Source: a virus
Taxonomy: Duplodnaviria; Heunggongvirae; Uroviricota; Caudoviricetes
Length of the DNA: 39,680 nt
Reading direction: 5' to 3' (one strand)
IMG/VR virus record: IMGVR_UViG_2506520037_000006
Positions 1 through 26,079 of this stretch are shown piece by piece. Position numbers and translations under genes: made by a program. The notes beneath the pieces were generated by a model that saw only the letters and a list, made by a program, of their open reading frames with translations, was not told the DNA's origin and made no database searches. The stretch's first letter is position 1. Each line of letters starts with the position of its first letter.

Positions 1-2445
1 ATGCCAACACCAACCATCATCAAAACACTCGCCACCCACCGCGAAAAACCGTTTGTCAGCGTCGTCACGCCAACCTGGAACCGCGGCGCATTCCTGCCGT
101 ACCTGCTCTATATGTACCGCTATCAGGATTACCCGGCAGACCGCCGCGAACTCATCATCCTCGACGATTCCCCACAAAGCCATCAACACATCATCGACCG
201 CCTGACCAATGGCACGCCGGAAGCCTTTAACATCCGCTACATCCATCACCCGGAAAAACTGCCGCTGGGCAAAAAACGCAACATGCTCAACGAACTGGCG
301 CGCGGCGAATACATCCTCTGCATGGATGATGACGACTACTATCCGGCAGATAAAATCTCTTACACCATCGCTATGATGCAAAAACACCGGGCGCTCATCT
401 CCGGTTCCGACCAGATCCCCATCTGGTACAGCCATATCAACCGTATCTTTCAAAGCCGCAGCTTTGGCCCACATAATATCCTCAACGGCACCTTTTGCTA
501 TCACCGTAACTACCTGAAAAAGCACCGTTACGACGATGATTGCAATTTAGGCGAAGAGAAAAGTTTCACCGACAATTTCAGCGTTAACCCGCTGCAACTG
601 CCCGGCGAGCGCACGATTTTGTGTATCTCGCATAGCCACAACACCTTTGATAAAGACTTTATTATCGGGGCCAGCACGCCAGTAAACACGGCGCTTACGG
701 ATATCGTCCGCGATCCGCTGCTGCGCAATGCTTATCTGAGTCTGCATAACGCCACTCATCACCAGGCGATCAACCATCAGGCGATCGATCAGGTGGTCGT
801 CGTGAATCTGGATAAACGCCCGGATCGCTTACAACAGATCCGTGAAGAACTGGCATTGCTGCATATTCCACCCGAGAAGATCACCCGCCTTGCCGCCTGT
901 GAAGATGAAAACGGTCAACGGGGCCGCCGCCTGTCGCACTTGCAGGCGCTGCGACTGGCGCAACAGCATGGCTGGCAAAATTACCTGTTGCTGGAAGATG
1001 ACGCGGTTATTCTCAAGCAGGAAAAACATATTCAGGTGCTGAACACGCTGCTGGCGAGCCTGGCGAAAATTCCCTGGCAGGTGATGATCCTCGGCGGCGA
1101 AATTTCGCAGGGAACGATGCTAAAAAGTTTGCCGGGGCTGGTGCACGCGCGGGACTGCCGCAAAGTGTGCGCTTATCTGGTGAACAGCCGCTACTACCCG
1201 CAACTGGCGCAGCAGTTGAGCAACGATGAGCACTCGCTGGAAGACGTCTGGCAGCCGCTGCTACGCGCCGACAAATGGCTGGCCTGTTACCCGAGCCTTT
1301 GTTACCAGCGACCGGGCTTTAGCGATATCGAGAAAAAAGTGACCGACAACATTAGTCACTATTTCAATAAGTTACCTGTATCCACAAAGCCATCCGCATT
1401 ACCCATCGCCGACACCATCGGCTTTTTTATGGAAACCTCATTCCACTACGCGCTGTATCGTCCAATCATCACCGCTCTACAGGCGCAGGGGAAGAGCTGC
1501 ACACTAGTGATCAATGACCGCGTGTTTAAACCGTTTCTTGATGAGATGCTGGAAACACTGAAAAACATCGACGATCCGCAGCTTAAAGGTATGCGCTTGT
1601 CTGAGATGCAGGCACATAGTCAGCGGGTGAAATGCCTGGTCAGCCCCTACCACACGCCTGCGCTCAATGGCCTTTCACCCGTGAACATCCGCGCCATGTA
1701 CGGCTTAGCTAAAGAGACGTGGAACCATGCAGACTGGAACCGTTTTTATCAGCGTATTTTGTGTTACAGCCACTACAGCCAGCGGGCGCTGGAACATTTC
1801 GGCAATGCAAAAGTGGTTGGCAACCCGCGCTTCGACGCCTGGCATAACGGCACGTTCGACCGCGCTCTGCCGGAAAATATTCAACCCGATTCCTGTAAAC
1901 CTACGGTGCTCTACGCCCCCACGTTTGGCGCATTAAGCTCCCTGCCCCACTGGGCAGAAAAATTGGGCCGCTTAAGCGGTGATGTGAACCTGATTTGCAA
2001 ACTGCACCACGGCACCAGCTCGCGCCCGCAAGAAGCTGCATCGCTGGCCCTGGCGCGCAGGCACTTAAAACAGCTCACCGACTCCGCCCGCCACACGCTG
2101 GCGCTACTGGCAAAGGCCGATTACGTGCTCACCGATAACAGTGGGTTTATTTTCGATGCGATCCACGTTGATAAACGGGTGATCCTGCTCGACTTCCCGG
2201 GCATGACGGAACTGCTCGACGGTGAGAAAAGTTATTCCACGCCGGAGAGCGCCGACCAGCGGATTCGCGAAATATTGCCGGTGGCTCATGAGGTTGCGGA
2301 ACTGCGTTACTTATTGTCAGAGGCGTTTGACTGGGGGTCGGTGCAGGCGCGGCTTACGGAGATTCGCCATCACTATTGCGATGCGTTTATGGATGGCAAG
2401 GCGGGAGAACGGGCGGCGATTGTGATTGTGGAGGCGCTGGGGTAA
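1..2445 (+). CDS. Host multidomain glycosyltransferase: N-terminal GT2-like domain, central GT25-like domain, C-terminal TagB/TagF-like CDP-glycerol glycerophosphotransferase domain
   Basis: 814-aa ORF beginning with ATG at window base 1 (an upstream extension cannot be excluded); DxD-type MDDDD motif in N-terminal third; VLYAPTF and VLTDNSGFIFD motifs typical of TagF-family enzymes in C-terminal third; stop TAA at 2443-2445. Confidence 0.6.
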   Translation: MPTPTIIKTLATHREKPFVSVVTPTWNRGAFLPYLLYMYRYQDYPADRRELIILDDSPQSHQHIIDRLTNGTPEAFNIRYIHHPEKLPLGKKRNMLNELARGEYILCMDDDDYYPADKISYTIAMMQKHRALISGSDQIPIWYSHINRIFQSRSFGPHNILNGTFCYHRNYLKKHRYDDDCNLGEEKSFTDNFSVNPLQLPGERTILCISHSHNTFDKDFIIGASTPVNTALTDIVRDPLLRNAYLSLHNATHHQAINHQAIDQVVVVNLDKRPDRLQQIREELALLHIPPEKITRLAACEDENGQRGRRLSHLQALRLAQQHGWQNYLLLEDDAVILKQEKHIQVLNTLLASLAKIPWQVMILGGEISQGTMLKSLPGLVHARDCRKVCAYLVNSRYYPQLAQQLSNDEHSLEDVWQPLLRADKWLACYPSLCYQRPGFSDIEKKVTDNISHYFNKLPVSTKPSALPIADTIGFFMETSFHYALYRPIITALQAQGKSCTLVINDRVFKPFLDEMLETLKNIDDPQLKGMRLSEMQAHSQRVKCLVSPYHTPALNGLSPVNIRAMYGLAKETWNHADWNRFYQRILCYSHYSQRALEHFGNAKVVGNPRFDAWHNGTFDRALPENIQPDSCKPTVLYAPTFGALSSLPHWAEKLGRLSGDVNLICKLHHGTSSRPQEAASLALARRHLKQLTDSARHTLALLAKADYVLTDNSGFIFDAIHVDKRVILLDFPGMTELLDGEKSYSTPESADQRIREILPVAHEVAELRYLLSEAFDWGSVQARLTEIRHHYCDAFMDGKAGERAAIVIVEALG

Positions 2446-2456: not shown

Positions 2457-2485
2457 GCCTGATGCGCTTCGCTTATCAGGCCTAC
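2457..2485. repeat. REP (repetitive extragenic palindromic) unit, enterobacterial type
   Basis: gcctgatgcgcttcgcttatcaggcctac, imperfect palindrome immediately 3' of host gene. Confidence 0.7.
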
Positions 2486-2500
2486 GGATCGATCACGTCC

Positions 2501-2528
2501 TGTAGGCCGGATAAGGCGTTTACGCCGC
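2501..2528. repeat. Second REP unit of a BIME, interrupted by the Mu insertion (continues at 39246..39254)
   Basis: tgtaggccggataaggcgtttacgccgc; joined to right flank it reads ...ggcgtttacgccgcatccggca, the classic REP core. Confidence 0.7.
2524..2528. repeat. Left copy of 5-bp target-site duplication (GCCGC)
   Basis: gccgc immediately precedes Mu left terminus; identical pentamer at 39246..39250. Confidence 0.85.
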
Positions 2529-2715
2529 TGTATTGATTCACTTGAAGTACGAAAAAAACCGGGAGGACATTGGATTATTCGGGATCTGATGGGATTAGAT
2601 TTGGTGGGGCTTGCAAGCCTGTAGTGCAAATTTTAGTCGTTAATCAATGAAACGCGAAAGATAGTAAAAAATTGCTTTTGTTTCATTGAAAATACGAAAA
2701 ACAAAAACACTGCAA
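2529..2715 (+). other. Mu attL: MuA end-binding sites L1, L2, L3
   Basis: Repeated MuA-site-like motifs (gaagtacgaaaaa, tgaaacgcgaaag, gaaaatacgaaaaac) within the first ~190 bp. Confidence 0.75.
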
Positions 2716-2866
2716 ATCATTTCAATAACAGCTTCAAAAAACGTTCAAAACCGATAACAACCAAGCTGTCACCAAATGACTCATATCACAAATCAGCTTA
2801 TGCCGTTTAGGTATGTTACATGTGTGATTATGTGAGGTGAAGTATGTTTTAGCTGGTTCATGGTTG

Positions 2867-3457
2867 TTATACGGCTTTTTTTACCTCCTGTGGTTCCTGT
2901 GAAGGTACTACAACACTTTCCTGTTCATGAATCCCATACTTTGACAAAATCTCTTTGCGTTTTTCTTCAGGTAATGCATCTAGCATCATCAACGTCTGAA
3001 TACTTTGCTGTGAAAATCCTATAAAGCTGTAAAGTTTCTGTTCATTAAATACAAGAGGCATTAACGCCAACAACCCCCCTTTACTTAAAAGTTTCAGTGC
3101 CTTGCGTGCTTCATCTGGTTCCAGCTCTTCAATCATATTGATTAAGGTTGTGGTTAATTTGTTTATCAGTTCCGAAGAATCCTGTTTCTCATTGGCTTGA
3201 GCACCAGTATCCGGTGTGGATAACCCCAAGTGCGCAATAACTTGCTCTCGTTCTTTGGTGGGCATCGACATCACATCGTATTCAACAGCTTTCCCCCCCT
3301 TGACACCTTCCTTTTTTCGCTTCGTCCAGCCTTGAACATTTGCTCGATAGTGAACACCAGCAACAGATCCAGGCATACCATCAGCAGCCATAATTTCTTG
3401 CGGCGAACACCAAATTGACTTTTCAGTATTATTCTTTTCTATAAAGTTACTTTTCAA
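2867..3457 (-). CDS. c: Mu repressor c (Repc), 196 aa
   Basis: Translation MKSNFIEKNNTEKSIWCSPQEIMAADG... recognised as Mu c; initiation codon appears to be TTG (3455-3457 on minus strand); residue 47 is Arg. Confidence 0.93.
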   Translation of the reverse strand: MKSNFIEKNNTEKSIWCSPQEIMAADGMPGSVAGVHYRANVQGWTKRKKEGVKGGKAVEYDVMSMPTKEREQVIAHLGLSTPDTGAQANEKQDSSELINKLTTTLINMIEELEPDEARKALKLLSKGGLLALMPLVFNEQKLYSFIGFSQQSIQTLMMLDALPEEKRKEILSKYGIHEQESVVVPSQEPQEVKKAV

Positions 3458-3626
3458 AATTTAAACTCCTTATTTATCAACGCGTTAATCAGTAATCAAA
3501 GGAATTTACCAAAAAGCAGCTTTACAAAAAGCTTTTCAGTAATTATCTTTTTAGTAAGCTAGCTAAGTTTTTACACTTAGTTAAATTGCTAACTTTATAG
3601 ATTACAAAACTTAGGAGGGTTTTTAA
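3458..3626. promoter_or_regulatory. Mu early control region: operators O1-O3, divergent promoters Pe/Pc, IHF site, transposition enhancer (IAS)
   Basis: AT-rich 169-bp divergent intergenic region between c and ner; assignment by position from established Mu biology, individual sites not delimited. Confidence 0.65.
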
Positions 3627-3854
3627 ATGTGTTCCAACGAAAAGGCCCGTGATTGGCATCGTGCGGATGTGATTGCGGGACTTAAGAAAAGAAAGCTCTC
3701 TTTATCAGCTCTTTCCCGGCAGTTTGGTTATGCGCCAACTACATTAGCTAATGCGCTAGAACGACACTGGCCAAAGGGTGAGCAGATTATTGCTAACGCC
3801 TTAGAAACTAAACCGGAAGTAATCTGGCCTAGCCGATATCAAGCAGGTGAATAA
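3627..3854 (+). CDS. ner: Ner, DNA-binding negative regulator of early transcription, 75 aa
   Basis: ATG at 3627 preceded by SD aggaggg; translation [23 protein letters not shown]... matches Mu Ner. Confidence 0.95.
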
Positions 3855-3855
3855 C

Positions 3856-5847
3856 ATGGAACTTTGGGTATCACCGAAAGAGTGTGCGAATCTTCCTGGT
3901 TTGCCGAAAACATCGGCTGGTGTGATTTATGTTGCTAAAAAGCAAGGATGGCAAAACCGCACTAGAGCAGGTGTCAAAGGTGGTAAAGCAATTGAATACA
4001 ATGCGAACTCTTTACCTGTTGAAGCGAAAGCGGCGTTATTGCTGAGACAAGGAGAGATTGAAACAAGCCTGGGGTATTTTGAAATCGCCCGCCCCACGCT
4101 GGAAGCCCATGATTATGATCGTGAGGCACTGTGGAGCAAATGGGATAACGCCAGCGATTCCCAGCGCAGACTTGCTGAAAAATGGTTGCCTGCGGTTCAG
4201 GCTGCAGACGAAATGCTGAACCAGGGGATTTCAACGAAAACGGCTTTTGCGACCGTTGCAGGGCATTACCAGGTCAGCGCATCCACTTTGCGGGACAAGT
4301 ATTACCAGGTACAGAAGTTTGCGAAGCCTGACTGGGCGGCTGCACTTGTTGATGGACGTGGAGCATCCCGTCGCAATGTTCACAAAAGTGAATTTGACGA
4401 GGATGCCTGGCAGTTTCTGATTGCAGATTATCTGCGACCGGAAAAACCCGCTTTCCGCAAATGTTATGAGCGTCTGGAACTGGCAGCCCGCGAGCATGGC
4501 TGGAGTATTCCCTCCCGTGCCACGGCCTTTCGCCGGATTCAGCAACTGGACGAGGCAATGGTTGTTGCCTGTCGTGAAGGTGAACATGCACTGATGCATC
4601 TGATACCGGCACAGCAGCGAACTGTGGAACACCTGGACGCCATGCAGTGGATCAACGGCGACGGTTATCTGCATAACGTCTTTGTACGCTGGTTTAACGG
4701 TGATGTGATCCGTCCGAAAACATGGTTCTGGCAGGATGTGAAAACCCGAAAAATTCTGGGCTGGCGCTGCGATGTGAGCGAGAACATTGATTCAATTCGC
4801 CTCTCGTTCATGGATGTTGTGACTCGCTACGGTATCCCGGAGGATTTTCACATCACCATTGATAACACCCGTGGTGCTGCGAATAAATGGCTGACGGGAG
4901 GCGCGCCCAATCGCTACCGCTTTAAGGTAAAAGAGGACGATCCAAAAGGACTGTTTTTACTGATGGGGGCGAAAATGCACTGGACAAGCGTTGTTGCCGG
5001 TAAAGGCTGGGGCCAGGCAAAACCTGTTGAACGTGCTTTCGGTGTTGGTGGGCTTGAGGAATACGTTGATAAGCATCCGGCACTGGCTGGCGCATATACG
5101 GGGCCAAATCCGCAGGCAAAACCTGATAACTATGGCGACCGCGCTGTTGATGCAGAGCTGTTTCTGAAAACCCTTGCCGAAGGTGTGGCGATGTTCAATG
5201 CCAGAACAGGCCGTGAAACAGAAATGTGCGGGGGCAAACTCTCGTTTGATGATGTTTTCGAGCGTGAATACGCCAGAACGATTGTGCGTAAGCCAACCGA
5301 AGAACAAAAACGGATGCTGTTACTGCCTGCCGAGGCGGTGAACGTTTCACGCAAAGGCGAGTTTACGCTTAAAGTTGGCGGCTCCCTTAAAGGCGCGAAA
5401 AACGTTTATTACAACATGGCATTAATGAATGCCGGCGTGAAAAAAGTTGTGGTCAGGTTTGATCCGCAGCAGCTACACAGCACGGTTTATTGCTACACCC
5501 TGGACGGTCGGTTTATCTGTGAAGCGGAATGTCTGGCACCTGTTGCATTTAATGATGCTGCGGCAGGCCGTGAATATCGCCGCCGCCAGAAACAACTGAA
5601 ATCTGCGACGAAAGCAGCCATTAAGGCGCAGAAACAAATGGACGCGCTGGAAGTTGCTGAACTGCTGCCGCAGATAGCCGAACCAGCAGCACCAGAATCA
5701 CGAATTGTTGGTATTTTCCGGCCTTCCGGTAATACGGAACGGGTGAAGAATCAGGAGCGTGATGATGAATACGAAACTGAGCGTGATGAATATCTGAATC
5801 ATTCGCTGGATATTCTGGAACAGAACAGACGTAAAAAAGCCATTTAA
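3856..5847 (+). CDS. A: MuA DDE transposase, 663 aa
   Basis: ATG at 3856 (track ORF starts 9 nt upstream at GTG); translation [32 protein letters not shown]... matches MuA. Confidence 0.97.
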
Positions 5848-5885
5848 TTAACGTTTAAACAAAATTTAATTACGAGGTTATTCAG

Positions 5886-6824
5886 ATGAATATTTCCGAT
5901 ATTCGCGCAGGACTGCGCACGCTTGTAGAAAATGAAGAAACCACCTTTAAACAAATTGCTCTTGAGAGCGGGCTTTCTACCGGAACTATCAGTAGTTTTA
6001 TCAATGATAAGTACAACGGGGATAACGAGCGTGTTTCACAAATGCTGCAACGCTGGCTGGAAAAATATCATGCAGTGGCAGAACTACCTGAACCGCCCCG
6101 CTTTGTGGAAACGCAGACGGTAAAACAAATCTGGACAAGTATGCGTTTTGCCAGCCTGACTGAAAGTATTGCTGTTGTATGTGGCAATCCTGGTGTGGGC
6201 AAAACCGAAGCGGCCCGTGAATATCGCCGCACCAATAACAATGTCTGGATGATCACCATTACGCCATCCTGTGCCAGCGTTCTGGAATGTCTTACTGAAC
6301 TGGCGTTTGAGCTGGGAATGAATGACGCACCACGCCGTAAAGGGCCGCTCTCCCGCGCCCTGCGACGTCGCCTTGAAGGTACACAGGGGCTGGTTATCAT
6401 CGACGAAGCTGATCATCTTGGTGCCGAAGTTCTGGAAGAACTCCGCCTGTTACAGGAATCAACCCGTATTGGCCTTGTGCTGATGGGAAATCACCGGGTT
6501 TATTCAAATATGACGGGGGGTAACAGAACGGTTGAATTTGCCCGTCTGTTTTCCCGTATTGCAAAGCGCACTGCAATTAATAAAACCAAAAAAGCCGATG
6601 TAAAAGCTATTGCGGATGCCTGGCAGATTAACGGCGAAAAAGAACTGGAGTTATTACAGCAGATTGCGCAGAAACCAGGTGCGCTTCGCATTCTGAATCA
6701 TTCACTTCGCCTTGCAGCCATGACGGCTCACGGTAAAGGTGAGCGTGTTAACGAAGATTATCTGCGTCAGGCTTTCCGTGAATTAGACCTGGACGTTGAT
6801 ATTTCAACGCTGCTGCGTAATTAA
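5886..6824 (+). CDS. B: MuB, ATP-dependent target DNA activator (AAA+), 312 aa
   Basis: Translation MNISDIRAGLRTLVENEETTFKQIALESG...; Walker A GNPGVGKT; SD gagg upstream. Confidence 0.97.
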   Translation: MNISDIRAGLRTLVENEETTFKQIALESGLSTGTISSFINDKYNGDNERVSQMLQRWLEKYHAVAELPEPPRFVETQTVKQIWTSMRFASLTESIAVVCGNPGVGKTEAAREYRRTNNNVWMITITPSCASVLECLTELAFELGMNDAPRRKGPLSRALRRRLEGTQGLVIIDEADHLGAEVLEELRLLQESTRIGLVLMGNHRVYSNMTGGNRTVEFARLFSRIAKRTAINKTKKADVKAIADAWQINGEKELELLQQIAQKPGALRILNHSLRLAAMTAHGKGERVNEDYLRQAFRELDLDVDISTLLRN

Positions 6825-6839
6825 GAAGGAGAAGAAATT

Positions 6840-7067
6840 ATGATGGCCCGAAATATAAAAATGGCAACGGATGCGCAGAACTGGTTACAGGCGCGCGGGA
6901 GTCATGTAAATGAATCATATCTCGGCGTGGCGCGTCCGATTCTTGAAATCACTTACCCACCGGTGGAACTGGTAAAAAACGCGGTCAGAATTATGGAGCA
7001 TAAGTCCGGGGTGGCCCGTTCTGTATGGACGGCCCGTCTTAATGGTTGCCAGATTATCTGGAGATAA
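6840..7067 (+). CDS. kil: Kil, host-killing small early protein, 75 aa
   Basis: First ORF downstream of B with SD aaggagaag; position matches Mu kil. Confidence 0.7.
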
Positions 7068-7069
7068 CG

Positions 7070-7300
7070 ATGTGTATTAAAGCTGAAAAATATATTGAAT
7101 GGGTTAAACACTGTCAGTGCCACGGGGTGCCGCTGACGACATATAAATGCCCCGGATGTGGTGAACAGATTATGACGCAATGCTCACCCGAAAAGGAAAT
7201 TCGGGATTCCCTGACATGTTGTCCGTGGTGCAGCGCAGTTTTCTTTAAACAGGTAAAAGGCGCGAAGGTAAAAGCCAGCGCGGTTATTCAGAATCAATAA
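7070..7300 (+). CDS. Early semi-essential region protein, Cys-rich zinc-ribbon-like, 76 aa
   Basis: ATG at 7070 with SD ggagataacg, 2 nt after kil stop; CxC/CPGC/CCPWC cysteine clusters. Confidence 0.6.
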   Translation: MCIKAEKYIEWVKHCQCHGVPLTTYKCPGCGEQIMTQCSPEKEIRDSLTCCPWCSAVFFKQVKGAKVKASAVIQNQ

Positions 7301-7311
7301 GGTGAAACAAA

Positions 7312-7575
7312 ATGGCAAAAGTAATTATTGAAATTAAAAATACAGTATCTGGAATTAAAGGACGGAATTTGCGCACCAGCATTGCGGTGGACGGTAGTGC
7401 GGAACTGGACGGTGATGAGGGTACACTTGCTGGCATGGTGGCGTTACTGGTGCTTAATAAAAGCCAGAAAATAATTAATGAGTCAGCCCATGAAGCTATT
7501 GAGATTTTGAAAAACGATGGTGTCATCACCAGTGGTCGTGTCACTGAAATGGCTGTTGAAAAAACATGTCACTGA
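7312..7575 (+). CDS. Early semi-essential region hypothetical protein, 87 aa
   Basis: ATG at 7312 with SD aaggtga; same-strand tightly packed operon. Confidence 0.6.
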   Translation: MAKVIIEIKNTVSGIKGRNLRTSIAVDGSAELDGDEGTLAGMVALLVLNKSQKIINESAHEAIEILKNDGVITSGRVTEMAVEKTCH

Positions 7576-8009
7576 AAGGAACGCTGACAATGAATGTCAA
7601 AATCCGAAATGAAATTCAGGCATTAATCCGAATTCAGGAACGCAATAACAACGGTGGTGAATTACGCGAGTTTATTTGTGCGCGTGAAGTTGATGGCTAT
7701 GGTGAAAAAACTTACCTGATTACTTTCGACCATTACAGCATCTGTGCGCGTTATTGCGGCGAAAGCATATCCCGCGCCATTGCGTCTGGCGATGCGTTTA
7801 ACGTGGATTTATGGGAGTACGTCATGGACCGGGAATACATCTGCGCATCAGACCCTGAAGCCCGTGAAATGTGGCAGCGTATCTGGCGCGATTACCGGTT
7901 AATGGCAAAAGGCTGGGCGCGCTGCTGTTATTCCTCGCTTGCCCTGAAAGCGGTTCAGTTATCGCTGCGGCATATTCCGGCATCACTGCGCGAGCCTCTG
8001 CTGTACTGA
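7566..8009 (+). CDS. Early semi-essential region hypothetical protein, 147 aa (alternative start 7590)
   Basis: ORF overlapping upstream gene by 10 nt; second in-frame ATG at 7590 has SD aaagga. Confidence 0.6.
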   Translation: MSLKGTLTMNVKIRNEIQALIRIQERNNNGGELREFICAREVDGYGEKTYLITFDHYSICARYCGESISRAIASGDAFNVDLWEYVMDREYICASDPEAREMWQRIWRDYRLMAKGWARCCYSSLALKAVQLSLRHIPASLREPLLY

Positions 8010-8309
8010 ATGGTGACTGACATGAAGTGTAATCGTAAGCGCTGGTCACGCGAAGACCGGGAATTTATCGAAGCCAACGTCGGGAAAATGACCGTTGAAG
8101 AAATGGCGGAAAAACTGAAAGTCGCCACAACCGCCCTCCGGGCACATGCCAGAAGGCACGGAATATCATTGTGTGTATACCGAATCAGTGAACACGACAA
8201 ATATTTATGTCGTGAACTTTATAAAGAAGGACTGGATATTCATGTTATTGCCCGAAAGATGGAATTAAGCAATCGAGCTGTATCCAGCATTGTATACAGC
8301 GGATATTAA
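8010..8309 (+). CDS. Early semi-essential region protein, possible HTH DNA-binding, 99 aa
   Basis: ATG at 8010 overlapping upstream stop (TGAATG); helix-turn-helix-like segment KMTVEEMAEKLKVATTALRAHARRHG. Confidence 0.55.
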   Translation: MVTDMKCNRKRWSREDREFIEANVGKMTVEEMAEKLKVATTALRAHARRHGISLCVYRISEHDKYLCRELYKEGLDIHVIARKMELSNRAVSSIVYSGY

Positions 8310-8328
8310 TTAACAGGAGCTTTAATTT

Positions 8329-8853
8329 ATGGCTAAACCAGCAAAACGTATCAAGAGTGCCGCAGCGGCTTATGTGCCACAAAACCGCGATGCGGTGATT
8401 ACCGATATTAAACGCATCGGGGATTTACAGCGCGAAGCATCACGTCTGGAAACGGAAATGAATGATGCCATCGCGGAAATTACGGAGAAATTTGCGGCCC
8501 GGATTGCACCGATTAAAACCGATATTGAAACCCTTTCAAAAGGCGTTCAGGGATGGTGTGAAGCGAACCGCGACGAACTGACGAACGGCGGCAAAGTGAA
8601 GACGGCGAATCTTGTCACCGGTGATGTATCGTGGCGGGTCCGTCCACCATCAGTAAGTATTCGTGGTATGGATGCAGTGATGGAAACGCTGGAGCGTCTT
8701 GGCCTGCAACGCTTTATTCGCACGAAGCAGGAAATCAACAAGGAAGCGATTTTACTGGAACCGAAAGCGGTCGCAGGCGTTGCCGGAATTACAGTTAAAT
8801 CAGGCATTGAGGATTTTTCTATTATTCCATTTGAACAGGAAGCCGGTATTTAA
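8329..8853 (+). CDS. gam: Gam, Ku-like DNA-end-binding host-nuclease inhibitor, 174 aa
   Basis: Translation MAKPAKRIKSAAAAYVPQNRDAVITDIKRIGDLQREASRLETEMNDAIAEITEKF... matches Mu Gam; SD caggagc. Confidence 0.92.
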   Translation: MAKPAKRIKSAAAAYVPQNRDAVITDIKRIGDLQREASRLETEMNDAIAEITEKFAARIAPIKTDIETLSKGVQGWCEANRDELTNGGKVKTANLVTGDVSWRVRPPSVSIRGMDAVMETLERLGLQRFIRTKQEINKEAILLEPKAVAGVAGITVKSGIEDFSIIPFEQEAGI

Positions 8854-8951
8854 TACCACCATTAATATTTAATTAATTCACATTCTTTTAATTATGGCGC
8901 GATACGTCAGGAGATTGCTCGCGCCTGAAACAGATTACTGAGGAATAAAAC

Positions 8952-9482
8952 ATGGTTGATGCAAAAATTCTGAATGGTGTCAGCACATTATTACGGGCTT
9001 ACGGACGCCTGACCTGCGGAGTTCTGGCTGAAAAAATGAATATGCTGCCCTCGTCAATGGTGTATTTCCTGCGTGATGCGGTTGATGCCGGAGTGCTCAC
9101 CGAATGCAACGGATTTTATGACGTTCCGCGCCCGCGTCCGACGCCGCCTGTAAGACGAAACGCAACTGAGCAGCCTGCTGTTGATGATGCGGTGTGGTGC
9201 AACTGGCGTCGCTCATTACCCTGGGTGGAAGGTAATACCATCCCCGCGCTGGCAAAAGAGTTTGCGACGGGCGTGCTGACCTGTGAGTCAGTCCACATTG
9301 TTGCTGAGGTGGATAACAGAATGTGCGAACAGGGAATGCCCCGTTTTGTGATGGCTTATATCGATATCCGGCTGGGGCGTTTTATTTGCAGTTCAAGCGT
9401 CTGGAATATCACCGACCATGTACTGCGTTATCTCATTCTTGATTGTTCTCCGGCTCCCGCAGCGGTGCAGGAGGTGGCGTGA
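8952..9482 (+). CDS. Early semi-essential region hypothetical protein, 176 aa
   Basis: ATG at 8952 with SD tgaggaa; translationally coupled to next ORF (TGATG overlap at 9480-9484). Confidence 0.6.
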   Translation: MVDAKILNGVSTLLRAYGRLTCGVLAEKMNMLPSSMVYFLRDAVDAGVLTECNGFYDVPRPRPTPPVRRNATEQPAVDDAVWCNWRRSLPWVEGNTIPALAKEFATGVLTCESVHIVAEVDNRMCEQGMPRFVMAYIDIRLGRFICSSSVWNITDHVLRYLILDCSPAPAAVQEVA

Positions 9483-10012
9483 TGTTTTTTAAAACGTCAA
9501 ATCCCGCAGCACTGCTGGCGTGGGACCAGTTTATGGCGGACTGTCTGAAACTACGCGAAGAAGCCCGCCATCTTGATAAGGTTCTGGGTTGTGGTTGCCG
9601 GTCAGTATTCAGCACAAGTATTGGTGGGCGTTATTTTCATGGTGTGAACTTTCCGGGGAATGAGCGCCCTTTCTCGCGGGAGCTGTGGACCGTACAACGG
9701 CCCGCATCAGGTAACAGTTGCAGGCCCAGAACTTCGCGGATACCTGCTCATCTCAGGGAGCAGGCAAGAGAGCTGGCGAAAATATGGCAGGAGAATATTC
9801 CGGTCACTTACGCCCGCACAGACGCTCTTTTACCCGCACTGGGACTGGATTTCAGCGCAACAATATTCGGGCCGCTCCAGTGGTTCCGTGTTGGTGATGT
9901 GATTTACGTCATGACGGGGATGACACCCGCGCAAGGCCGCATGACTGAAATCCTTTCTGACGAATTTATCCGGGCGCAAAAACAGGCGGAGGTAAACAAT
10001 GGAAAACAATAA
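9482..10012 (+). CDS. Early semi-essential region hypothetical protein, 176 aa
   Basis: ATG at 9482 with SD gcaggaggtg; track ORF begins upstream at TTG 9443. Confidence 0.6.
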   Translation: MFFKTSNPAALLAWDQFMADCLKLREEARHLDKVLGCGCRSVFSTSIGGRYFHGVNFPGNERPFSRELWTVQRPASGNSCRPRTSRIPAHLREQARELAKIWQENIPVTYARTDALLPALGLDFSATIFGPLQWFRVGDVIYVMTGMTPAQGRMTEILSDEFIRAQKQAEVNNGKQ

Positions 10013-10181
10013 AACATCGTATTCGTGGCTGGGGAAATTCACCACGGTGAAACAGGAATGCCCGACCTGCGGTAATGAATCCCCTGAATATCTGAAAGAG
10101 TGCCCTCATTGTGGCGGGCTGAAATGCAACCACTGCGATATGGGCGATGACACAGCGTGCATGAATTGTGAAGGTGAATAA
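9999..10181 (+). CDS. Small zinc-ribbon protein with four CxxC pairs, 60 aa
   Basis: CPTC, CPHC, CNHC, CMNC motifs; SD ggcggagg before ATG 9999. Confidence 0.55.
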   Translation: MENNKTSYSWLGKFTTVKQECPTCGNESPEYLKECPHCGGLKCNHCDMGDDTACMNCEGE

Positions 10182-10182
10182 T

Positions 10183-10485
10183 ATGAATAATGAAACTAAA
10201 TTTACTCCCCTTAATATTGATAACGTCATGGCTGAAAAAGGGATGCTGGAACGTGTTCGCGCTATCGTTGAATATGGTATTAAGCATAATCTCACCGCCA
10301 GAGAAGTCCGTGACATTATCAACCGCGAAATGAATCGTCTGGAAACAGTAGTGGCACTGCAAAATGAAACAGCCCGCGAGGAGTACATCCGCCGCAGGCT
10401 GGGGCTATCAGACCAGGATATTGTTACTGACGCTCATGTGTTTGAGGCTTTTGAGATCCGTCAGCATCTGGGTCTAACGAACTGA
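10183..10485 (+). CDS. Early semi-essential region hypothetical protein, 100 aa
   Basis: ATG at 10183 with SD aaggtga, 1 nt after upstream stop; track ORF starts at GTG 10168. Confidence 0.6.
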   Translation: MNNETKFTPLNIDNVMAEKGMLERVRAIVEYGIKHNLTAREVRDIINREMNRLETVVALQNETAREEYIRRRLGLSDQDIVTDAHVFEAFEIRQHLGLTN

Positions 10486-10690
10486 TAATGTCTTCCATGA
10501 TCTTTGACAGTTGCAGTTTTTCGCGGCGGCTTGTTCTCATTGCAGGCGCATCTTTTAAAATCTCTGCTGAAGAGCTGAAAATGGCTTTGCCCTCTTCTGC
10601 GGTGATGATCGCCTTCTTCACCAGAAGGCGCACCAGTGCTGATGCAATCGCATAACCTGCAACATCATAAGGTTGTACATTATTTTCCAT
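10424..10690 (-). CDS. Candidate leftward-transcribed small protein (88 aa) inside the early region; function unknown
   Basis: ATG at 10688-10690 (minus) preceded by SD agagagga with 5-nt spacer; fills the only gap in rightward coding; overlaps 3' end of upstream rightward gene by 62 nt. Confidence 0.3.
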   Translation of the reverse strand: MENNVQPYDVAGYAIASALVRLLVKKAIITAEEGKAIFSSSAEILKDAPAMRTSRREKLQLSKIMEDIISSLDPDADGSQKPQTHERQ

Positions 10691-10760
10691 AAAATCCTCT
10701 CTGATTGATGTGTAAATTCAGGCGGTGTTGCAGCACCGCCCCCTTTCCGGAGGTACGATC

Positions 10761-11312
10761 ATGAGTCGCACATCCCTGATTAAATTAATCCATGTCGCCC
10801 GTCGGGAGCTACAACTCGACGACGACACTTACCGCGCTTTTCTGATGCAGAAAACGGGCAAAATCAGTTGCCGCGAGCTGACGGTCACGCAACTGGAACA
10901 GGTGCTCGGTGCCATGAAAGAACGCGGCTTTAAGAAGCAGAATAAATACCCCCGTCGCCGCTTTAAGGGGCATGTCACGCCCCGTGAGAAGGTGTATAAA
11001 ATCTGGCAGCAGATGGCAGAAGACGGTTTTATTACCGATGGCGGTGATGTGGCGCTGGATAAATATGTTCAGCGCCTGACCGCGAAACGCAACGGCGGAC
11101 AGGGCGTTTCCACACTGGCGTGGTGTCATGGCGACACGCTGCTGACAGTCCTCGAAACACTCAAGCAGTGGCACATCCGCTGTATTCGTGAAGCCTTTTC
11201 CCGTCACGGGCTTCCATTGCCGGTCAGTCCGTCCGGTCGTGAACTGCGCGGCTATGATGCCATGACGGCGGCTTATGCCCATGCCAGAAAGACACGGAGG
11301 ATGGCACAATGA
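10761..11312 (+). CDS. gemA: GemA, early regulatory protein, 183 aa
   Basis: ATG at 10761 with SD ggaggtacgatc; translation MSRTSLIKLIHVARRELQLDDDTYRAF...; located immediately upstream of mor. Confidence 0.85.
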   Translation: MSRTSLIKLIHVARRELQLDDDTYRAFLMQKTGKISCRELTVTQLEQVLGAMKERGFKKQNKYPRRRFKGHVTPREKVYKIWQQMAEDGFITDGGDVALDKYVQRLTAKRNGGQGVSTLAWCHGDTLLTVLETLKQWHIRCIREAFSRHGLPLPVSPSGRELRGYDAMTAAYAHARKTRRMAQ

Positions 11313-11698
11313 CGGAAGATTTATTTGGTGATTTGCAGGATGACACCATCCTGGCACATCTTGACAATCCCGCCGAGGATACGTCACGCTTTCCGGCACT
11401 GCTGGCGGAGCTGAACGATTTACTGCGCGGGGAATTGTCCCGGCTGGGTGTTGATCCTGCCCATTCACTGGAGATTGTTGTGGCTATCTGTAAGCATCTG
11501 GGCGGCGGTCAGGTCTACATTCCACGCGGTCAGGCTCTGGACTCGCTGATTCGGGATTTGCGTATCTGGAATGATTTTAACGGTCGCAACGTCAGCGAAC
11601 TGACCACCCGTTATGGTGTCACTTTCAATACGGTGTACAAAGCCATTCGCCGGATGCGACGGCTGAAATACCGCCAGTACCAGCCCTCACTTCTGTAA
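11309..11698 (+). CDS. mor: Mor, middle operon transcription activator, 129 aa
   Basis: Translation MTEDLFGDLQDDTILAHLDNPAEDTSRFP... matches Mu Mor; ATGA overlap with gemA stop. Confidence 0.95.
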   Translation: MTEDLFGDLQDDTILAHLDNPAEDTSRFPALLAELNDLLRGELSRLGVDPAHSLEIVVAICKHLGGGQVYIPRGQALDSLIRDLRIWNDFNGRNVSELTTRYGVTFNTVYKAIRRMRRLKYRQYQPSLL

Positions 11699-11703
11699 AC
11701 AGT

Positions 11704-11728
11704 AAAGCCGGTTAATCCGGCTTTTTTT
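11704..11728 (+). terminator. Rho-independent terminator ending the early transcript (Mu t9.2)
   Basis: gccgg-ttaat-ccggc hairpin followed by ttttttt directly after mor stop. Confidence 0.85.
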
Positions 11729-11775
11729 ACGTCCTCAATATCCTGTGATGAATAACCGTACCGGGGAAAATCATC

Positions 11776-11994
11776 ATGGGTAAAGGCTGGAATGCATCCT
11801 TTCATCTTGGCAGACGTGAGCGGCTGCGTCAGGAGGTTTTGCACCGTGTCGCCGGTGGGCCACGTCCTGCGCCCCGCGACTATACCGGTCATGATGGCAC
11901 CCACGGCAGTTATTACATGAAAGGCTGGCAGTCAGTTGATATGCCGGAAATTCTTCATCATTGCCTGCTTTACAGGGAGAAACATTATGTCTGA
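11776..11994 (+). CDS. Middle-operon hypothetical protein, 72 aa
   Basis: ATG at 11776; first ORF after early terminator, upstream of C. Confidence 0.5.
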   Translation: MGKGWNASFHLGRRERLRQEVLHRVAGGPRPAPRDYTGHDGTHGSYYMKGWQSVDMPEILHHCLLYREKHYV

Positions 11995-12349
11995 GCGTTC
12001 TGCTCGTCAGTGGCCTGATTTTTTATCGGTGGTGTTACTGGCGCTGTTATTGTGGATAAGTCTGTTTTGTGGCTGGCGCGCGCTGATGTTTTGCTGTGCC
12101 TCGGTTTTCAGTGTTGCTTTATGTGTTGCCGCTGATTGTCTGGATGCGCTGATAATGAGCTGCCGGGTGCCTGAACATTTTGCCCGGTTCGTCTGGCCTC
12201 TGACCTGGCTGGGGAGTCTGTCCGGGCTGGGATTAGCCGTGATGGCAACGTCTCAACTGAAAACGGGTCCTGAGCATGTCATCTGGGCGCTGGCCGGATT
12301 GCTGACGTTCTGGCTCTCATTTCGTTTTCGCGCTCGTCTGTTCGGGTAA
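11987..12349 (+). CDS. Middle-operon membrane protein (multiple predicted TM helices), 120 aa
   Basis: ATG at 11987 with SD agggaga; hydrophobic segments LSVVLLALLLWISLFCGW, VFSVALCVAADCL, LGLAVMATSQL; track ORF starts upstream at TTG 11936. Confidence 0.55.
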   Translation: MSERSARQWPDFLSVVLLALLLWISLFCGWRALMFCCASVFSVALCVAADCLDALIMSCRVPEHFARFVWPLTWLGSLSGLGLAVMATSQLKTGPEHVIWALAGLLTFWLSFRFRARLFG

Positions 12350-12358
12350 AGGGGCACC

Positions 12359-12478
12359 ATGTACAGAAAATTCAGTGATGAATGTTTCGGGCCGTCCACG
12401 CTGATTAATGCGATAAAAGTGATTGCCCTTGTGGTTCTGATAACCATCAGTGCCGTGGTGTATCTTTCTGTCTGTTAA
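12359..12478 (+). CDS. Small single-pass membrane protein, 39 aa (below the 60-aa cut-off of the ORF track)
   Basis: ATG 12359 with SD aaagggg; translation MYRKFSDECFGPSTLINAIKVIALVVLITISAVVYLSVC; stop TAA 12476-12478. Confidence 0.4.
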   Translation: MYRKFSDECFGPSTLINAIKVIALVVLITISAVVYLSVC

Positions 12479-12490
12479 CCGGGGGAAAAT

Positions 12491-12913
12491 ATGCAGCATG
12501 ATTTATTTGAACACGATCCGGCAATTCGCCAGTTAATCGGACATATTGATAACATCCCGGCCCCGGAACTGGAATCACGCTGGCCCCGTTCGGTGGTTGA
12601 TCTGATTGATGTTCTGGAAAACGAACTGAAACGCCAGAACGTCAGCAATCCCCGTGAACTTGCCCGTAAACAGGCCGTTGCCCTGTCCTGTTTTCTGGGT
12701 GGACGGCAGTTTTACATCCCCTGCGGCGATACGATCCTGACCGCGTTACGCGACGATTTGCTTTACTGCCAGTTTAATGGTCGTAACATGGAAGAACTGC
12801 GTCGCCAGTACCGCCTGTCCCAGCCGCAGATCTACCAGATTATTGCCCGCCAGAGAAAGCTGCATACACGACGTCATCAGCCTGATCTGTTCTCACCTGA
12901 AACCCCAAAATAA
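12491..12913 (+). CDS. C: C, late transcription activator (Mor/C family), 140 aa
   Basis: Translation MQHDLFEHDPAIRQLIGHIDNIPAPELESRW... matches Mu C; SD gggggaaaat. Confidence 0.95.
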   Translation: MQHDLFEHDPAIRQLIGHIDNIPAPELESRWPRSVVDLIDVLENELKRQNVSNPRELARKQAVALSCFLGGRQFYIPCGDTILTALRDDLLYCQFNGRNMEELRRQYRLSQPQIYQIIARQRKLHTRRHQPDLFSPETPK

Positions 12914-12936
12914 CCGGCATCCTGCCGGTTATTTCC
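12914..12936 (+). terminator. Hairpin downstream of C, possible middle-transcript terminator
   Basis: ccggcatcctgccgg stem-loop followed by ttatttcc. Confidence 0.4.
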
Positions 12937-12939
12937 TGT

Positions 12940-13004
12940 CACCATAATCCCGCACCTGCCACCTGATTTTTTAGACTGCCATCAGAGAATTTTTTCAGGG
13001 AAGC
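12940..13004 (+). promoter_or_regulatory. Plys, C-dependent late promoter region
   Basis: Position upstream of lys; motif tcccgcacct at 12948-12957 shared with the G-I intergenic region; candidate -10 tagact 12972-12977. Confidence 0.5.
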
Positions 13005-13523
13005 ATGATGGCGGGGATACCAAAAAAACTGAAAGCCGCACTGCTGGCTGTAACGATTGCCGGTGGCGGAGTGGGTGGTTATCAGGAAATGACCCGTCAG
13101 TCTCTGATCCACCTGGAAAATATCGCTTATATGCCTTACCGCGATATTGCCGGTGTGCTTACGGTCTGTGTGGGACATACCGGGCCGGATATCGAAATGC
13201 GCCGTTACAGCCATGCGGAGTGTATGGCTCTCCTCGACAGTGATTTAAAACCGGTTTATGCGGCAATCGATCGTCTTGTCAGGGTGCCGCTGACGCCATA
13301 TCAGAAAACGGCGCTGGCAACGTTTATTTTCAACACCGGTGTTACCGCATTCAGTAAATCAACGCTGCTGAAAAAACTCAATGCCGGTGATTACGCCGGA
13401 GCGCGTGACCAGATGGCCCGCTGGGTGTTTGCCGCAGGCCATAAATGGAAAGGACTGATGAACCGTCGCGAAGTGGAAATGGCAATCTGGAATATCAGGG
13501 GGGCGGATGACCTTCGCCAGTAA
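13005..13523 (+). CDS. lys: Lys, SAR endolysin (GH24 lysozyme-like), ~171 aa
   Basis: N-terminal Gly/Ala-rich signal-anchor-release segment LKAALLAVTIAGGGVGGY; E-8-D-5-T catalytic spacing in ENIAYMPYRDIAGVLT. Confidence 0.9.
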   Translation: MMAGIPKKLKAALLAVTIAGGGVGGYQEMTRQSLIHLENIAYMPYRDIAGVLTVCVGHTGPDIEMRRYSHAECMALLDSDLKPVYAAIDRLVRVPLTPYQKTALATFIFNTGVTAFSKSTLLKKLNAGDYAGARDQMARWVFAAGHKWKGLMNRREVEMAIWNIRGADDLRQ

Positions 13524-13893
13524 AAGTTTACTACTGGCAGCCGTGTTTACCGCCGTTCTGTCCGGGGGGTTGTGGCACAGGCTGGACAGCACCCGCCACG
13601 ATAACCAGACGCTGCGCCGTGAATTACAGACGGAGCAACAGGCCCGCCACACTGCTGAATGGTTGTTACACGGTCAGGAACAGACGATGCAGGTATTTTC
13701 CGCTATCCGTGCCGCAAATCGTGCCGCACGGCTGGCAGATGAGACAGAACATCATGATGCAAAAGAAAAAATTACAACCGCCATTACTGGTGACAATTGC
13801 AGCACTCGTCCTGTGCCTGCCGTTGCTGCTGACAGGTTGCGGGAACTCGAAAAACGCACCCGTGCCATCGGTGGTGATCCTGCCCGAAATTGA
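13507..13893 (+). CDS. i-spanin (inner-membrane spanin subunit), 128 aa
   Basis: N-terminal TM helix LLLAAVFTAVLSGGLW followed by charged helical periplasmic domain; directly downstream of endolysin. Confidence 0.7.
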   Translation: MTFASKSLLLAAVFTAVLSGGLWHRLDSTRHDNQTLRRELQTEQQARHTAEWLLHGQEQTMQVFSAIRAANRAARLADETEHHDAKEKITTAITGDNCSTRPVPAVAADRLRELEKRTRAIGGDPARN

Positions 13894-14095
13894 TACAGAA
13901 CTGACGGAAGCAACGCCCGTTCCGCCCATGCCACAGCCCCTGACGTGGGGAGCATCCCTTCTCTGGAATGCTGACCTGTTGATGGCGCTCGGGCAGTGCA
14001 ACCGCGACAAGGCATCAGTCCGGGAACAGGAGATCCGAAGGAAAGAAATTTATGAACGAAGACCAGAACCGGGCGGTGGCGCTGCTGCTCGCTGA
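13754..14095 (+). CDS. o-spanin (outer-membrane lipoprotein spanin subunit), 113 aa, overlapping the i-spanin in another frame
   Basis: ATG 13754 inside i-spanin gene; lipoprotein signal with lipobox LLLTGC; Pro-rich mature part. Confidence 0.65.
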   Translation: MMQKKKLQPPLLVTIAALVLCLPLLLTGCGNSKNAPVPSVVILPEIDTELTEATPVPPMPQPLTWGASLLWNADLLMALGQCNRDKASVREQEIRRKEIYERRPEPGGGAAAR

Positions 14096-14246
14096 ACTCT
14101 GGCAGGGGGATACCCGTGATATTCCCCGCCCGGCGGCGTATGACCCGCCTGTATTGTGTGCCGGTTGCGGTCGTGAGCTGCGGCCTGATGTGCTGAGACA
14201 GCAGCCGATGGCGAACTACTGCCACTGGTGCCGTGGAGCAGAATAA
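14052..14246 (+). CDS. Hypothetical small Cys-containing protein, 64 aa
   Basis: ATG 14052 with SD aaggaaag; CAGCG...CHWC motifs. Confidence 0.5.
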   Translation: MNEDQNRAVALLLAELWQGDTRDIPRPAAYDPPVLCAGCGRELRPDVLRQQPMANYCHWCRGAE

Positions 14247-14545
14247 TGGATTTGATTTCAGTTTTAGCGTTATGGCCTTACCTGTTGCCTGTTGTGGCCG
14301 GTGGGGCCGTCTGGGCGATGCGTCGTAGTTTTGCCAGCACCGAGCGTGTGGAGCGTCTTGAAAACCGGATGACCGAAATGGAAACCCGCTACGCCAGCAT
14401 CCCTGGCACAGAAGATGTACACGAAATGCGCCTGCGAATTGCAGAGCTGTCCGGCGATATCCGGGTGCTGTCCCAGCGGGTGCAGTCATTTTCCCATCAA
14501 CTGGAGCTGCTGCTTGAAAACGCAGTAAACCGGAGTAATTCATGA
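14246..14545 (+). CDS. Lysis-region membrane protein (Mu gp25-like, reported releasin), 99 aa
   Basis: ATG 14246 overlapping upstream stop (TAATG); N-terminal TM MDLISVLALWPYLLPVVAGGAVWAM then coiled-coil-like region; track ORF starts at GTG 14228. Confidence 0.6.
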   Translation: MDLISVLALWPYLLPVVAGGAVWAMRRSFASTERVERLENRMTEMETRYASIPGTEDVHEMRLRIAELSGDIRVLSQRVQSFSHQLELLLENAVNRSNS

Positions 14546-14832
14546 TTAACGATATTCTGACCGAAGACCGTCGTCTGGTCATCCTGCGTTCCCTGATGGA
14601 CTGCAATAACGAAGCAAACGAATCCATCCTTCAGGACTGTCTGGATGCATACGGACACAACGTTTCCCGCGATGTGGTTCGCGGCCAGATTGACTGGCTG
14701 GCAGAGCAGCAACTGGTCACCGTGGAAAACCTGCGCGGCTTTTATGTCGTAACGCTGACCTCCCGAGGTCAGGATGTGGCAGAAGGTCGTGCCCGCGTTG
14801 CCGGTGTCAAGCGTCCTCGTCCCCGTGCATGA
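14542..14832 (+). CDS. Hypothetical late protein, 96 aa
   Basis: ATG 14542 with SD ccggagtaa, ATGA overlap with upstream gene. Confidence 0.6.
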   Translation: MINDILTEDRRLVILRSLMDCNNEANESILQDCLDAYGHNVSRDVVRGQIDWLAEQQLVTVENLRGFYVVTLTSRGQDVAEGRARVAGVKRPRPRA

Positions 14833-14843
14833 CAGGAGGCGTG

Positions 14844-15419
14844 ATGGACAGGAAAACACGGGGCCGGGCTTCAAAAGTGGATTTACTGCCGGAAAACGTA
14901 CGTAAAACGCTGCATGAAATGCTGCGTGATAAAGCGATCCCACAGGCCCGCATTCTGGAAGAAATTAACGCACTGATTGAAGACGCAGGCCTGCCGGATG
15001 AGATGAAACTCTCCCGTTCCGGTCTGAATCGTTACGCGACGAACGTCGAGCAGGTAGGCCATAACCTGCGACAGATGCGTGAAATGACGTCAGCACTGAC
15101 CGCAGAACTTGGCGACAAGCCAATGGGAGAAACCACAAAGCTGATTCTGGAAATGGCCCGCAGCCAGCTTTTTAAGGCCATGATGCGGCAAATCGAAAAC
15201 CCGGAATCTGACGTGGATATTGACCTGCTGAAAAATGCCATGCTGGCGGCACAGCGTCTGGAATCCACGGCAATGTCCAGCCACCGGCGCGAGAAAGAAA
15301 TCCGCCAGGCATTCGCAGAAGAAGCGGCAAACGCCGTCAGTGAAGAACTGCGCGGGCAGGATGGCATCAGCGAAGAGCTGGAGCAGCGTATCCGTGATGT
15401 ACTGCTGGGTAAGGCATGA
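14844..15419 (+). CDS. D: D (gp27), DNA-binding small terminase-like protein, ~191 aa (alternative start 14829)
   Basis: ATG 14844 preceded by SD aggagg; position immediately upstream of large terminase. Confidence 0.7.
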   Translation: MDRKTRGRASKVDLLPENVRKTLHEMLRDKAIPQARILEEINALIEDAGLPDEMKLSRSGLNRYATNVEQVGHNLRQMREMTSALTAELGDKPMGETTKLILEMARSQLFKAMMRQIENPESDVDIDLLKNAMLAAQRLESTAMSSHRREKEIRQAFAEEAANAVSEELRGQDGISEELEQRIRDVLLGKA

Positions 15420-15426
15420 GAGGGTT

Positions 15427-19920: not shown

Positions 19921-20387
19921 GTCTTGATATGAACGTTGCCGTGGATGTGCGACGTATTCAGCTTGCGCTGGATGAACTGGGAACCGTCACACGTGACCGC
20001 GCCATTCCCCGAGTGATGGCTGCGGCGCTGCTGTCATCCACGGAACAGGCATTTGAACGGCAGGCAGACCCGGATACAGGGAAAGGCTGGGAAGCGTGGA
20101 GCGATTCGTGGCTGGCATGGCGTCAGGATCATGGTTTTGTTCCGGGCAGTATCCTTACCCTGCATGGCGATCTGGCACGCAGTATTACCACCGATTATGG
20201 ACAGGATTATGCCCTGATTGGTTCGCCAAAAATTTATGCTGCCATTCATCAGTGGGGCGGTACACCCGATATGGCACCCCGCCCGGCAGGCGTTCCTGCG
20301 CGTCCTTATATGGGGCTGGATAAGACCGGGGAACAGGAAATTTTTGATGCCATCAGAAAACGCGTCAGCGCCGCTCTGAGGCAATAA
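19917..20387 (+). CDS. G: G (gp31), virion morphogenesis protein, 156 aa (alternative ATG start 19929)
   Basis: GTG 19917 with SD ggaggtga 7 nt upstream, overlapping F stop. Confidence 0.7.
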   Translation: MSLDMNVAVDVRRIQLALDELGTVTRDRAIPRVMAAALLSSTEQAFERQADPDTGKGWEAWSDSWLAWRQDHGFVPGSILTLHGDLARSITTDYGQDYALIGSPKIYAAIHQWGGTPDMAPRPAGVPARPYMGLDKTGEQEIFDAIRKRVSAALRQ

Positions 20388-22583: not shown

Positions 22584-22591
22584 CCGTCATT

Positions 22592-22615: not shown

Positions 22616-22649
22616 AACCTGATTTAAAGGAAAAGGAGGAGCATGTGTT

Positions 22650-25704: not shown

Positions 25705-25713
25705 GGAGCATTT

Positions 25714-26070: not shown

Positions 26071-26079
26071 GGGGAAACA

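Follow-up and report, generated by a model that had tools for sequence, protein, structure and literature searches.

The locus raises the question of why a Mu prophage lies inside a REP, the small palindrome that E. coli carries in many copies between its genes: whether Mu struck this site by chance, was drawn to it, or was kept there since the position was useful, and what its arrival did to the host genes on either side. The window, that is, the whole stretch of 39,680 nucleotides that was analysed (IMG/VR record IMGVR_UViG_2506520037_000006), contains the prophage with a host gene at each flank, and all positions below are window positions. A preliminary description of this DNA had claimed that Mu inserted within one REP of a two-REP, BIME-like element between convergent genes, and this central claim is borne out; several of the consequences attached to it are not.

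The prophage is 36,717 bp long and lies within the chromosome of E. coli W (ATCC 9637); its coordinates and those of the other features are collected in Table 1. Its left end at 2529 reads TGTATTGATTCAC... (TGTATTGATTCACTTGAAG...) and its right end at 39245 reads ...GCGCCGCTTCA (...GTGCGCCGCTTCA). Both ends (5'-TG...CA-3', attL and attR) are identical to those of reference Mu, AF083977, and the 5-bp target sequence GCCGC is present as a direct repeat at the two borders, as expected of a product of Mu transposition. The first 24.5 kb show 100% identity with AF083977/NC_000929, and base-by-base comparison with AF083977 over the full length revealed equal lengths and three substitutions in 36,717 bases, which confirms the identification of the element as inserted Mu. 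The substitutions lie at positions 3318 (Mu 790), 21800 (Mu 19272) and 32037 (Mu 29509); one gives codon 47 of the c repressor as R in the W prophage and Q in AF083977, and the other two are synonymous (codon 45 of T, the major capsid gene, and codon 35 of gp46). We take Q47 to be the thermosensitive cts62 allele of c, in which case W would have the wild-type c+. Strain W was isolated around 1943 and its prophage is near-identical to laboratory Mu, so one may ask whether W is the strain from which Mu naturally came or acquired the phage by lysogenisation in a laboratory; a literature search judged by titles found nothing relevant on the history of Mu and its connection with E. coli W.

Only nine records contain the whole left junction (2300-2900), and each is from W or one of its derivatives (W twice, LY180, KO11FL, AQ15, SL112, B-766, HBUT-L and hubt-sl), and the W junction is identical in NC_017635 and NC_017664. 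Because the junction is restricted to these nine records, the insertion represents a single event in the W lineage. The prophage and its non-coding location in Flag-2 are already published: in their passages on it, Archer et al. (2011; PMC3032704) describe a Mu prophage, 'WMu', which W has and Crooks does not, in a non-coding part of Flag-2, and place it between the orthologues of EcolC_3376 and EcolC_3377. Those same passages on WMu leave unmentioned the REP as a target, the target duplication and the closeness to reference Mu.

Table 1. Features of the Mu insertion site in E. coli W, in window coordinates.
Feature	Position	Strand	Description or basis
Left host gene	1..2445	+	814-aa glycosyltransferase, intact, at the end of a Flag-2 operon; ORF; ECW_RS01625 (E. 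coli W)
Left-gene stop codon	2443-2445	+	Site anatomy
REP1	2457..2485		Short, z1-like, GCCTGATGCGCTTCGCTTATCAGGCCTAC, with CTAC at the + strand 3' end; motif scan and fold
Linker between the inverted REPs	2486..2501		16 bp, GGATCGATCACGTCCT; sequence
REP2, left 27 nt	2502..2528		GTAG, 5' arm GCCGGAT-AA-GGCG, loop TTTA, inner 3' arm CGCC, mismatch GC
Target duplication, left copy	2524..2528		GCCGC; fits the NYSRN core, not the full CYSRG
Prophage Mu ('WMu')	2529..39245	+	From c repressor to mom; G segment in the same orientation as the reference
Mu c repressor gene	2867..3457	-	ORF and AF083977 annotation; transcribed toward the left end and the host REPs
Target duplication, right copy	39246..39250		GCCGC; direct repeat of 2524-2528
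REP2, right remnant	39251..39257		Outer 3' arm ATCCGGC
Gap from REP2 to right-gene stop codon	39258..39284		27 nt; site anatomy
Right host gene	39285..39680	-	131-aa cytidylyltransferase-like, intact, at the end of a Flag-2 fliE-to-fliJ-type operon; ORF
Right-gene stop codon	39285-39287	-	27 nt from REP2

When the target duplication is counted once, the two flanks rebuild a y-type REP, here REP2, from 2502-2528 plus 39251-39257, and the junction reads ...CTGTAGGCCGGATAAGGCGTTTACGCCGC joined directly to ATCCGGCAAG... (with a longer left part, ...CCTGTAGGCCGGATAAGGCGTTTACGCCGC joined to ATCCGGCAAG...). The core string given for the REP in the preliminary description, ggataaggcgtttacgccgcatccggca, was right and corresponds to 2509-2528 plus 39251-39258, but the right-hand coordinates supplied with it, 39246-39254, were wrong: that range takes in the second copy of GCCGC and ends 4 nt too early, and literal joining of the earlier coordinates yields ...CGCCGCGCCGCATCC, which contains no REP. 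The staggered cuts made by Mu bracket 2524-2528, in other words the last three bases of the inner 3' arm (CGCC, 2523-2526) together with the mismatched GC.

E. coli REPs are recognised by an imperfect palindrome whose stem is interrupted by a two-base mismatch, with GTAG preceding the foot on its 5' side (PMC3333891). Rebuilt REP2 has GTAG at 2502-2505 and AA (2513-2514) opposite GC (2527-2528) as its stem mismatch, the features of a y-type REP, and its imperfect palindrome, of the 30-40 nt expected for a REP, forms a stem-loop in which a TTTA loop closes a 4-bp inner stem, separated by the 2x2 mismatch from an outer stem of 7 bp. Its computed fold has an energy of -20.9 kcal/mol (z = -5.0), and none of 200 shuffled sequences was equally stable. 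REP2 is extragenic, located in the 117-bp spacer that separates the two convergent stop codons, and it belongs to a high-copy family: the 39-nt rebuilt element has 40 or more matching sites in every E. coli genome of the 5,426 searched, and the REP count of K-12 is 584 (PMC3333891). Searched against Rfam, the empty site returned only a sub-threshold match (41.7 bits, E = 5e-6) to the family naRNA4, itself of REP-cluster origin.

Comparison with uninterrupted relatives had been set as the test of the split REP, to be failed if the empty site lacked one. The 300-nt rebuilt empty site was found by BLAST at 100% identity, and as a single piece, in many E. coli genomes (ATCC 8739, O111, O26 and others), with 571 genomes reaching at least 80% coverage, and the empty site whose flanks are identical to those of the W lineage has an intact REP. 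Exact-string matching of the W flanks (400 nt on the left and 300 nt on the right) to ATCC 8739 gave no match. The reading of REP2 as a chance palindrome, generated by reading over the junction and corresponding to no genuine repeat, was considered and rejected. Nothing speaks for it except the slightly wrong right-hand coordinates mentioned above; the intact, 100% identical empty sites, the copy number across 5,426 genomes and the presence in rebuilt REP2 of every defining REP feature reduce its probability practically to nil.

A second, inverted REP unit had been placed at 2457-2485, and REP1 occupies exactly those positions. It is untouched by Mu, starts 11 nt past the stop codon of the left gene (gap 2446-2456) and folds with an energy of -13.2 kcal/mol (z = -4.1). 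REPs located no more than about 15 nt from a stop codon are said, after work by Liang, Rudd and Deutscher in 2015, to stall terminating ribosomes and to cut protein yield via trans-translation. Our literature search found no paper on ribosome stalling by such stop-proximal REPs; if the effect holds, the left glycosyltransferase gene would be affected with or without Mu.

REP1 is z1-like and REP2 is y; they form one inverse pair with their CTAC and GTAG ends facing one another, which is the REP composition of BIME-1. As described (PMC3333891; Bachellier/Gilson), BIME-1 consists of a z1 REP and a y REP on either side of a long, conserved L linker, in which an IHF site is frequent. The W site resembles it in its inverse z1-like and y REPs, its single copy and its extragenic position, but differs in its linker, which is only 16 bp long, and no match to the IHF consensus (WATCAR-N4-TTR), looked for as a mark of BIME-1 or RIP elements, occurs anywhere in the 117-bp spacer. 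Because of this short linker without an IHF consensus, the W allele reads as an atypical, short-linker variant of BIME-1.

The spacer also varies among strains. With a query made of the flanks only, the 117-bp spacer (a 417-nt span) was recovered in nearly all of about 600 genomes, and this W-type allele, in about 600 genomes, has the arrangement z1 REP, 16 bp, y REP. In the alleles of p4A and NC101, REP1 is unchanged and some 38-47 bp of linker separate it from a y REP, an arrangement that is BIME-1-like; the y REP of NC101 is half-deleted, and the downstream gene of the long-linker allele (NC101/p4A) is a different one. In WL297, the spacer is REP-less, 144 bp long and furnished with short repeats of its own. 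Judged by these sequences, the intergenic site is a variable BIME site with at least three alleles in E. coli.

The claim that no coding sequence was disrupted also stands, as both flanking ORFs are intact, convergent and of full length, with lengths and a 117-bp spacer the same as in ATCC 8739. The product of the left gene has a GT2 domain (Pfam Glycos_transf_2, E = 3e-18) and a weak match to Glyphos_transf (CDP-glycerol glycerophosphotransferase), and that of the right gene matches CTP_transf_like (E = 2e-19). In ATCC 8739 the left gene is likewise 2,445 nt long and closes the order flgA/M/N, hypothetical, glycosyltransferase, and the opposite operon runs fliE...fliJ, cytidylyltransferase; both flanking genes are thus operon-terminal, and the two operons, which belong to Flag-2 (lateral flagella), converge.

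Whether the REP was more than an incidental target depends on how Mu chooses its sites. The Mu target consensus is degenerate (5'-CYSRG), with a roughly 7-fold preference, and insertion is otherwise near-random and shaped by transcription (PMC7350765). The W target, GCCGC, fits the core NYSRN, of which REP2 contains five pentamers, and not CYSRG, which comprises the eight best pentamers and has no occurrence in the 117-bp spacer. Because GCCGC falls outside those eight pentamers and the spacer offers none of them, it is only an average-quality target for Mu.

For comparison, 34 other distinct natural left junctions of Mu or Mu-like prophages were assembled, 23 from contig scans and 11 from annotated E. 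coli genomes; the contig scans covered one-genome-per-species, metagenome and viral contigs for the Mu left end, and viral contigs for the right end. The 150-200 nt next to each junction were searched for the motifs that mark a REP head or tail, a scan that flags both W flanks. No such motif was present at any of the 34 other left junctions (0/34), nor at any of the 18 right junctions (0/18), 12 of which are doubtful, so that the preferential, repeated insertion into REPs that marks a REP-specific mobile element is not seen for Mu. Most of the other left junctions (27/34) fit NYSRN and two of the 34 fit CYSRG. REPs occupy about 0.44% of the genome (584 x ~35 nt); were 35 insertions placed at random, the probability of one or more falling in a REP would be 0.14, and zero of 34 junctions sets a 95% upper bound of about 8% on any REP-directed fraction.

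Two groups of junctions met in these scans merit comment in their own right. Twelve contigs of one IMG/VR metagenome, 3300045125, which supply the doubtful right junctions, have an exact copy of the Mu right end; in the majority, only some 50 nt of the sequence examined precede it, and just one of 12 unrelated flanks fits NYSRN. These matches look less like prophages than like chimeric assemblies or adapters from MuA-transposon libraries. A Mu-like site, ...GGTTAGCGTTTGCCCCAG followed at the junction by TGTATTG and with CCCAG as the duplication, was present in one E. coli genome, one Shigella flexneri genome and several IMG/VR contigs, and this recurrence suggests either inheritance of one prophage within a lineage or repeated use of the site; the S. 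flexneri genome has a second copy at another site.

It could be argued that some structural or protein-bound feature of the BIME, for instance a cruciform, bent DNA or gyrase, attracted Mu, and that a weak target preference lies behind the W insertion. The Mu transpososome does prefer bent targets (PMC7350765), the hotspots of phages Ab30 and 2P1 lie 55-61 bp from a REP-like motif and account for 5% of events (PMC5977238), and the W insertion falls within REP2, 39-43 bp from REP1. The natural Mu junctions described above, on the other hand, are without a nearby REP motif on either side, one insertion in a REP among 35 agrees with random expectation, and a deep-sequencing survey of Mu insertion in E. 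coli describes target choice solely through the 5-bp consensus and effects of transcription, with REP, BIME and palindrome lacking any relevant mention in that paper (PMC7350765). We therefore consider such attraction improbable, and more improbable still the idea that Mu has a weak, unnoticed affinity for REPs or BIMEs, mediated by structure, gyrase or IHF-type architecture, of which the W prophage would be a fossil. A single event is in any case insufficient to tell chance from weak targeting.

Instead, it is very probable that the W prophage records a single, near-random transposition of Mu into an NYSRN pentamer that happened to lie within a REP, and that this insertion, specific to the W lineage, was tolerated. 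MuA transposase joined the Mu ends to target phosphates 5 bp apart at GCCGC, and repair then duplicated the pentamer. The pentamer belongs to the 3' arm of REP2, the y-type REP that comes second in the z1/y pair, and the pair occupies the 117-bp spacer where the 3' ends of two convergent Flag-2 operons meet. The site was presumably struck essentially at random, since REPs are G+C-rich and contain several pentamers that fit the degenerate Mu core. The insertion breaks no gene, and with both flanking genes operon-terminal, polarity on downstream genes is impossible. We infer that the lysogen persisted since the insertion cost it little or nothing.

The consequences for the two host mRNAs are likely to be more limited than first proposed. 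The split palindrome had been regarded as a hairpin terminator shared by the convergent genes; this part of the proposal is not supported in the intrinsic sense, as a consensus scan for intrinsic terminators (a G+C stem followed by a T run) found none on either strand of the empty site. Likewise, no terminator-like sites occur at the REPs of either junction, or on the minus strand between the stop codon of c (2867) and the Mu left end. A REP would at most act as a stabiliser of, or a barrier at, an mRNA 3' end. The related proposal of a shared hairpin that is split holds for REP2, which is indeed divided, but not for a symmetric loss to both genes: REP1 is intact, and the right gene alone is deprived of its nearest REP.

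Given the inverse orientation of the REPs, RNA from the intact site is predicted to form either two hairpins or one long inter-REP hairpin (-44.9 kcal/mol on the plus strand and -45.6 on the minus strand). With Mu in place, the left host transcript, taken as far as the prophage border, has a predicted fold of -36.4 kcal/mol (z = -3.1) that uses the paired tails of both REPs and the retained inner stem of REP2, and the RNA of the right remnant has no significant predicted fold (-8.4 kcal/mol, z = -1.2). Minus-strand RNA over the left junction is predicted to keep a strong hairpin, with -41.7 kcal/mol overall (z = -2.0). By these models, only the 3' region of the right gene loses structure. The molecular consequences would accordingly be small and one-sided: the left gene would still have REP1 next to it and could form another strong hairpin, and the right gene would lose its proximal REP, with its transcripts running into attR and the right end of Mu. 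Transcripts of c may read out past the Mu left end into the remaining REP structure, as the stretch that separates the c stop codon from that end is free of terminator-like sites. At the opposite end of the prophage, directly downstream of mom, two terminator-like hairpins with T runs occur on the plus strand at 39184-39226, in the MuA-binding region of the Mu right end; these might restrict transcription that runs on from mom into the cytidylyltransferase gene of the host.

These predicted folds are also the ground on which a selected position might be proposed, with the hairpin stabilising the c mRNA, and hence lysogeny, or with the loss of REP2 altering expression of the cytidylyltransferase. 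The stretch from the c stop codon to the Mu left end without a terminator-like site, the strong minus-strand hairpin at the left junction and the unstructured 3' remnant of the right gene would all suit such a role, but they consist of predictions, the z-score of the junction fold is modest, and Mu lysogens are found at many sites that have no REP. Moreover, Flag-2 is judged probably non-functional in W in the passages of Archer et al. that deal with this cluster (PMC3032704). A useful split REP is, in our estimation, highly unlikely. The suggestion that this placement explains a phenotypically silent, stable lysogen is not needed either. Eight of the 11 other natural Mu-like prophages in annotated E. 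coli genomes interrupt genes, so an intergenic site is unnecessary for Mu to persist, and in W both neighbours are operon-terminal and belong to a cluster that is probably without function.

Two further records bear the marks of this insertion. NZ_CP026085.1 (1560-1860) and NZ_CM135829 are labelled DH5alpha, yet carry the Flag-2 locus of W, in which the outermost Mu sequences, the first ~100 bp at the left and the last ~70 bp at the right, are joined by an FRT-type recombineering scar (gtgtaggctggagctgcttc...FRT...catatg); the REP is still split and the GCCGC duplication is still present. Both appear to be mislabelled, Mu-deleted derivatives of W. Recombineering deletion of Mu from W thus leaves a split REP behind, as in NZ_CP026085.

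The original observation is accurate, the biology it reveals is ordinary, and its significance is mainly that of tidy annotation: the exact target, GCCGC in a y REP, can now be given for the prophage of an industrial strain. Beyond this, W and ATCC 8739 form a natural pair in which the effect of one REP on the 3' ends of two convergent mRNAs can be compared. A REP bias of Mu, if true, would tie the target choice of a model transposon to the architecture of the chromosome; the present evidence argues against it.

Two known systems invite comparison with the W insertion. The Mu-like phages Ab30 and 2P1 of Pseudomonas aeruginosa (Vergnaud et al. 2018, PMC5977238) are similar in that a transposable phage is associated with a REP or BIME, but their hotspots lie beside the motif, at the distance given above, and recur thousands of times during lytic growth, whereas the Mu of W is one lysogenic insertion within the REP itself that has no recurrence among natural Mu prophages. 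A third Pseudomonas phage, HW12, inserts nearly at random (PMC5977238), and no E. coli Mu hotspot comparable to those of Ab30 and 2P1 is reported in PMC7350765 or evident among the 34 left and 18 right junctions. Insertion into REPs is known for certain insertion sequences (PMC1525189; cited in PMC5977238). With these REP-targeting elements, such as IS621 (Tobes & Pareja 2006, PMC1525189), the W prophage shares the placement of a mobile element in an intergenic REP with no gene broken; they are reported to favour REPs, however, whereas Mu follows a degenerate 5-bp consensus and was without a REP motif at all 34 of its other left junctions. The W case thus resembles the REP-targeting insertion sequences in outcome, not in mechanism.
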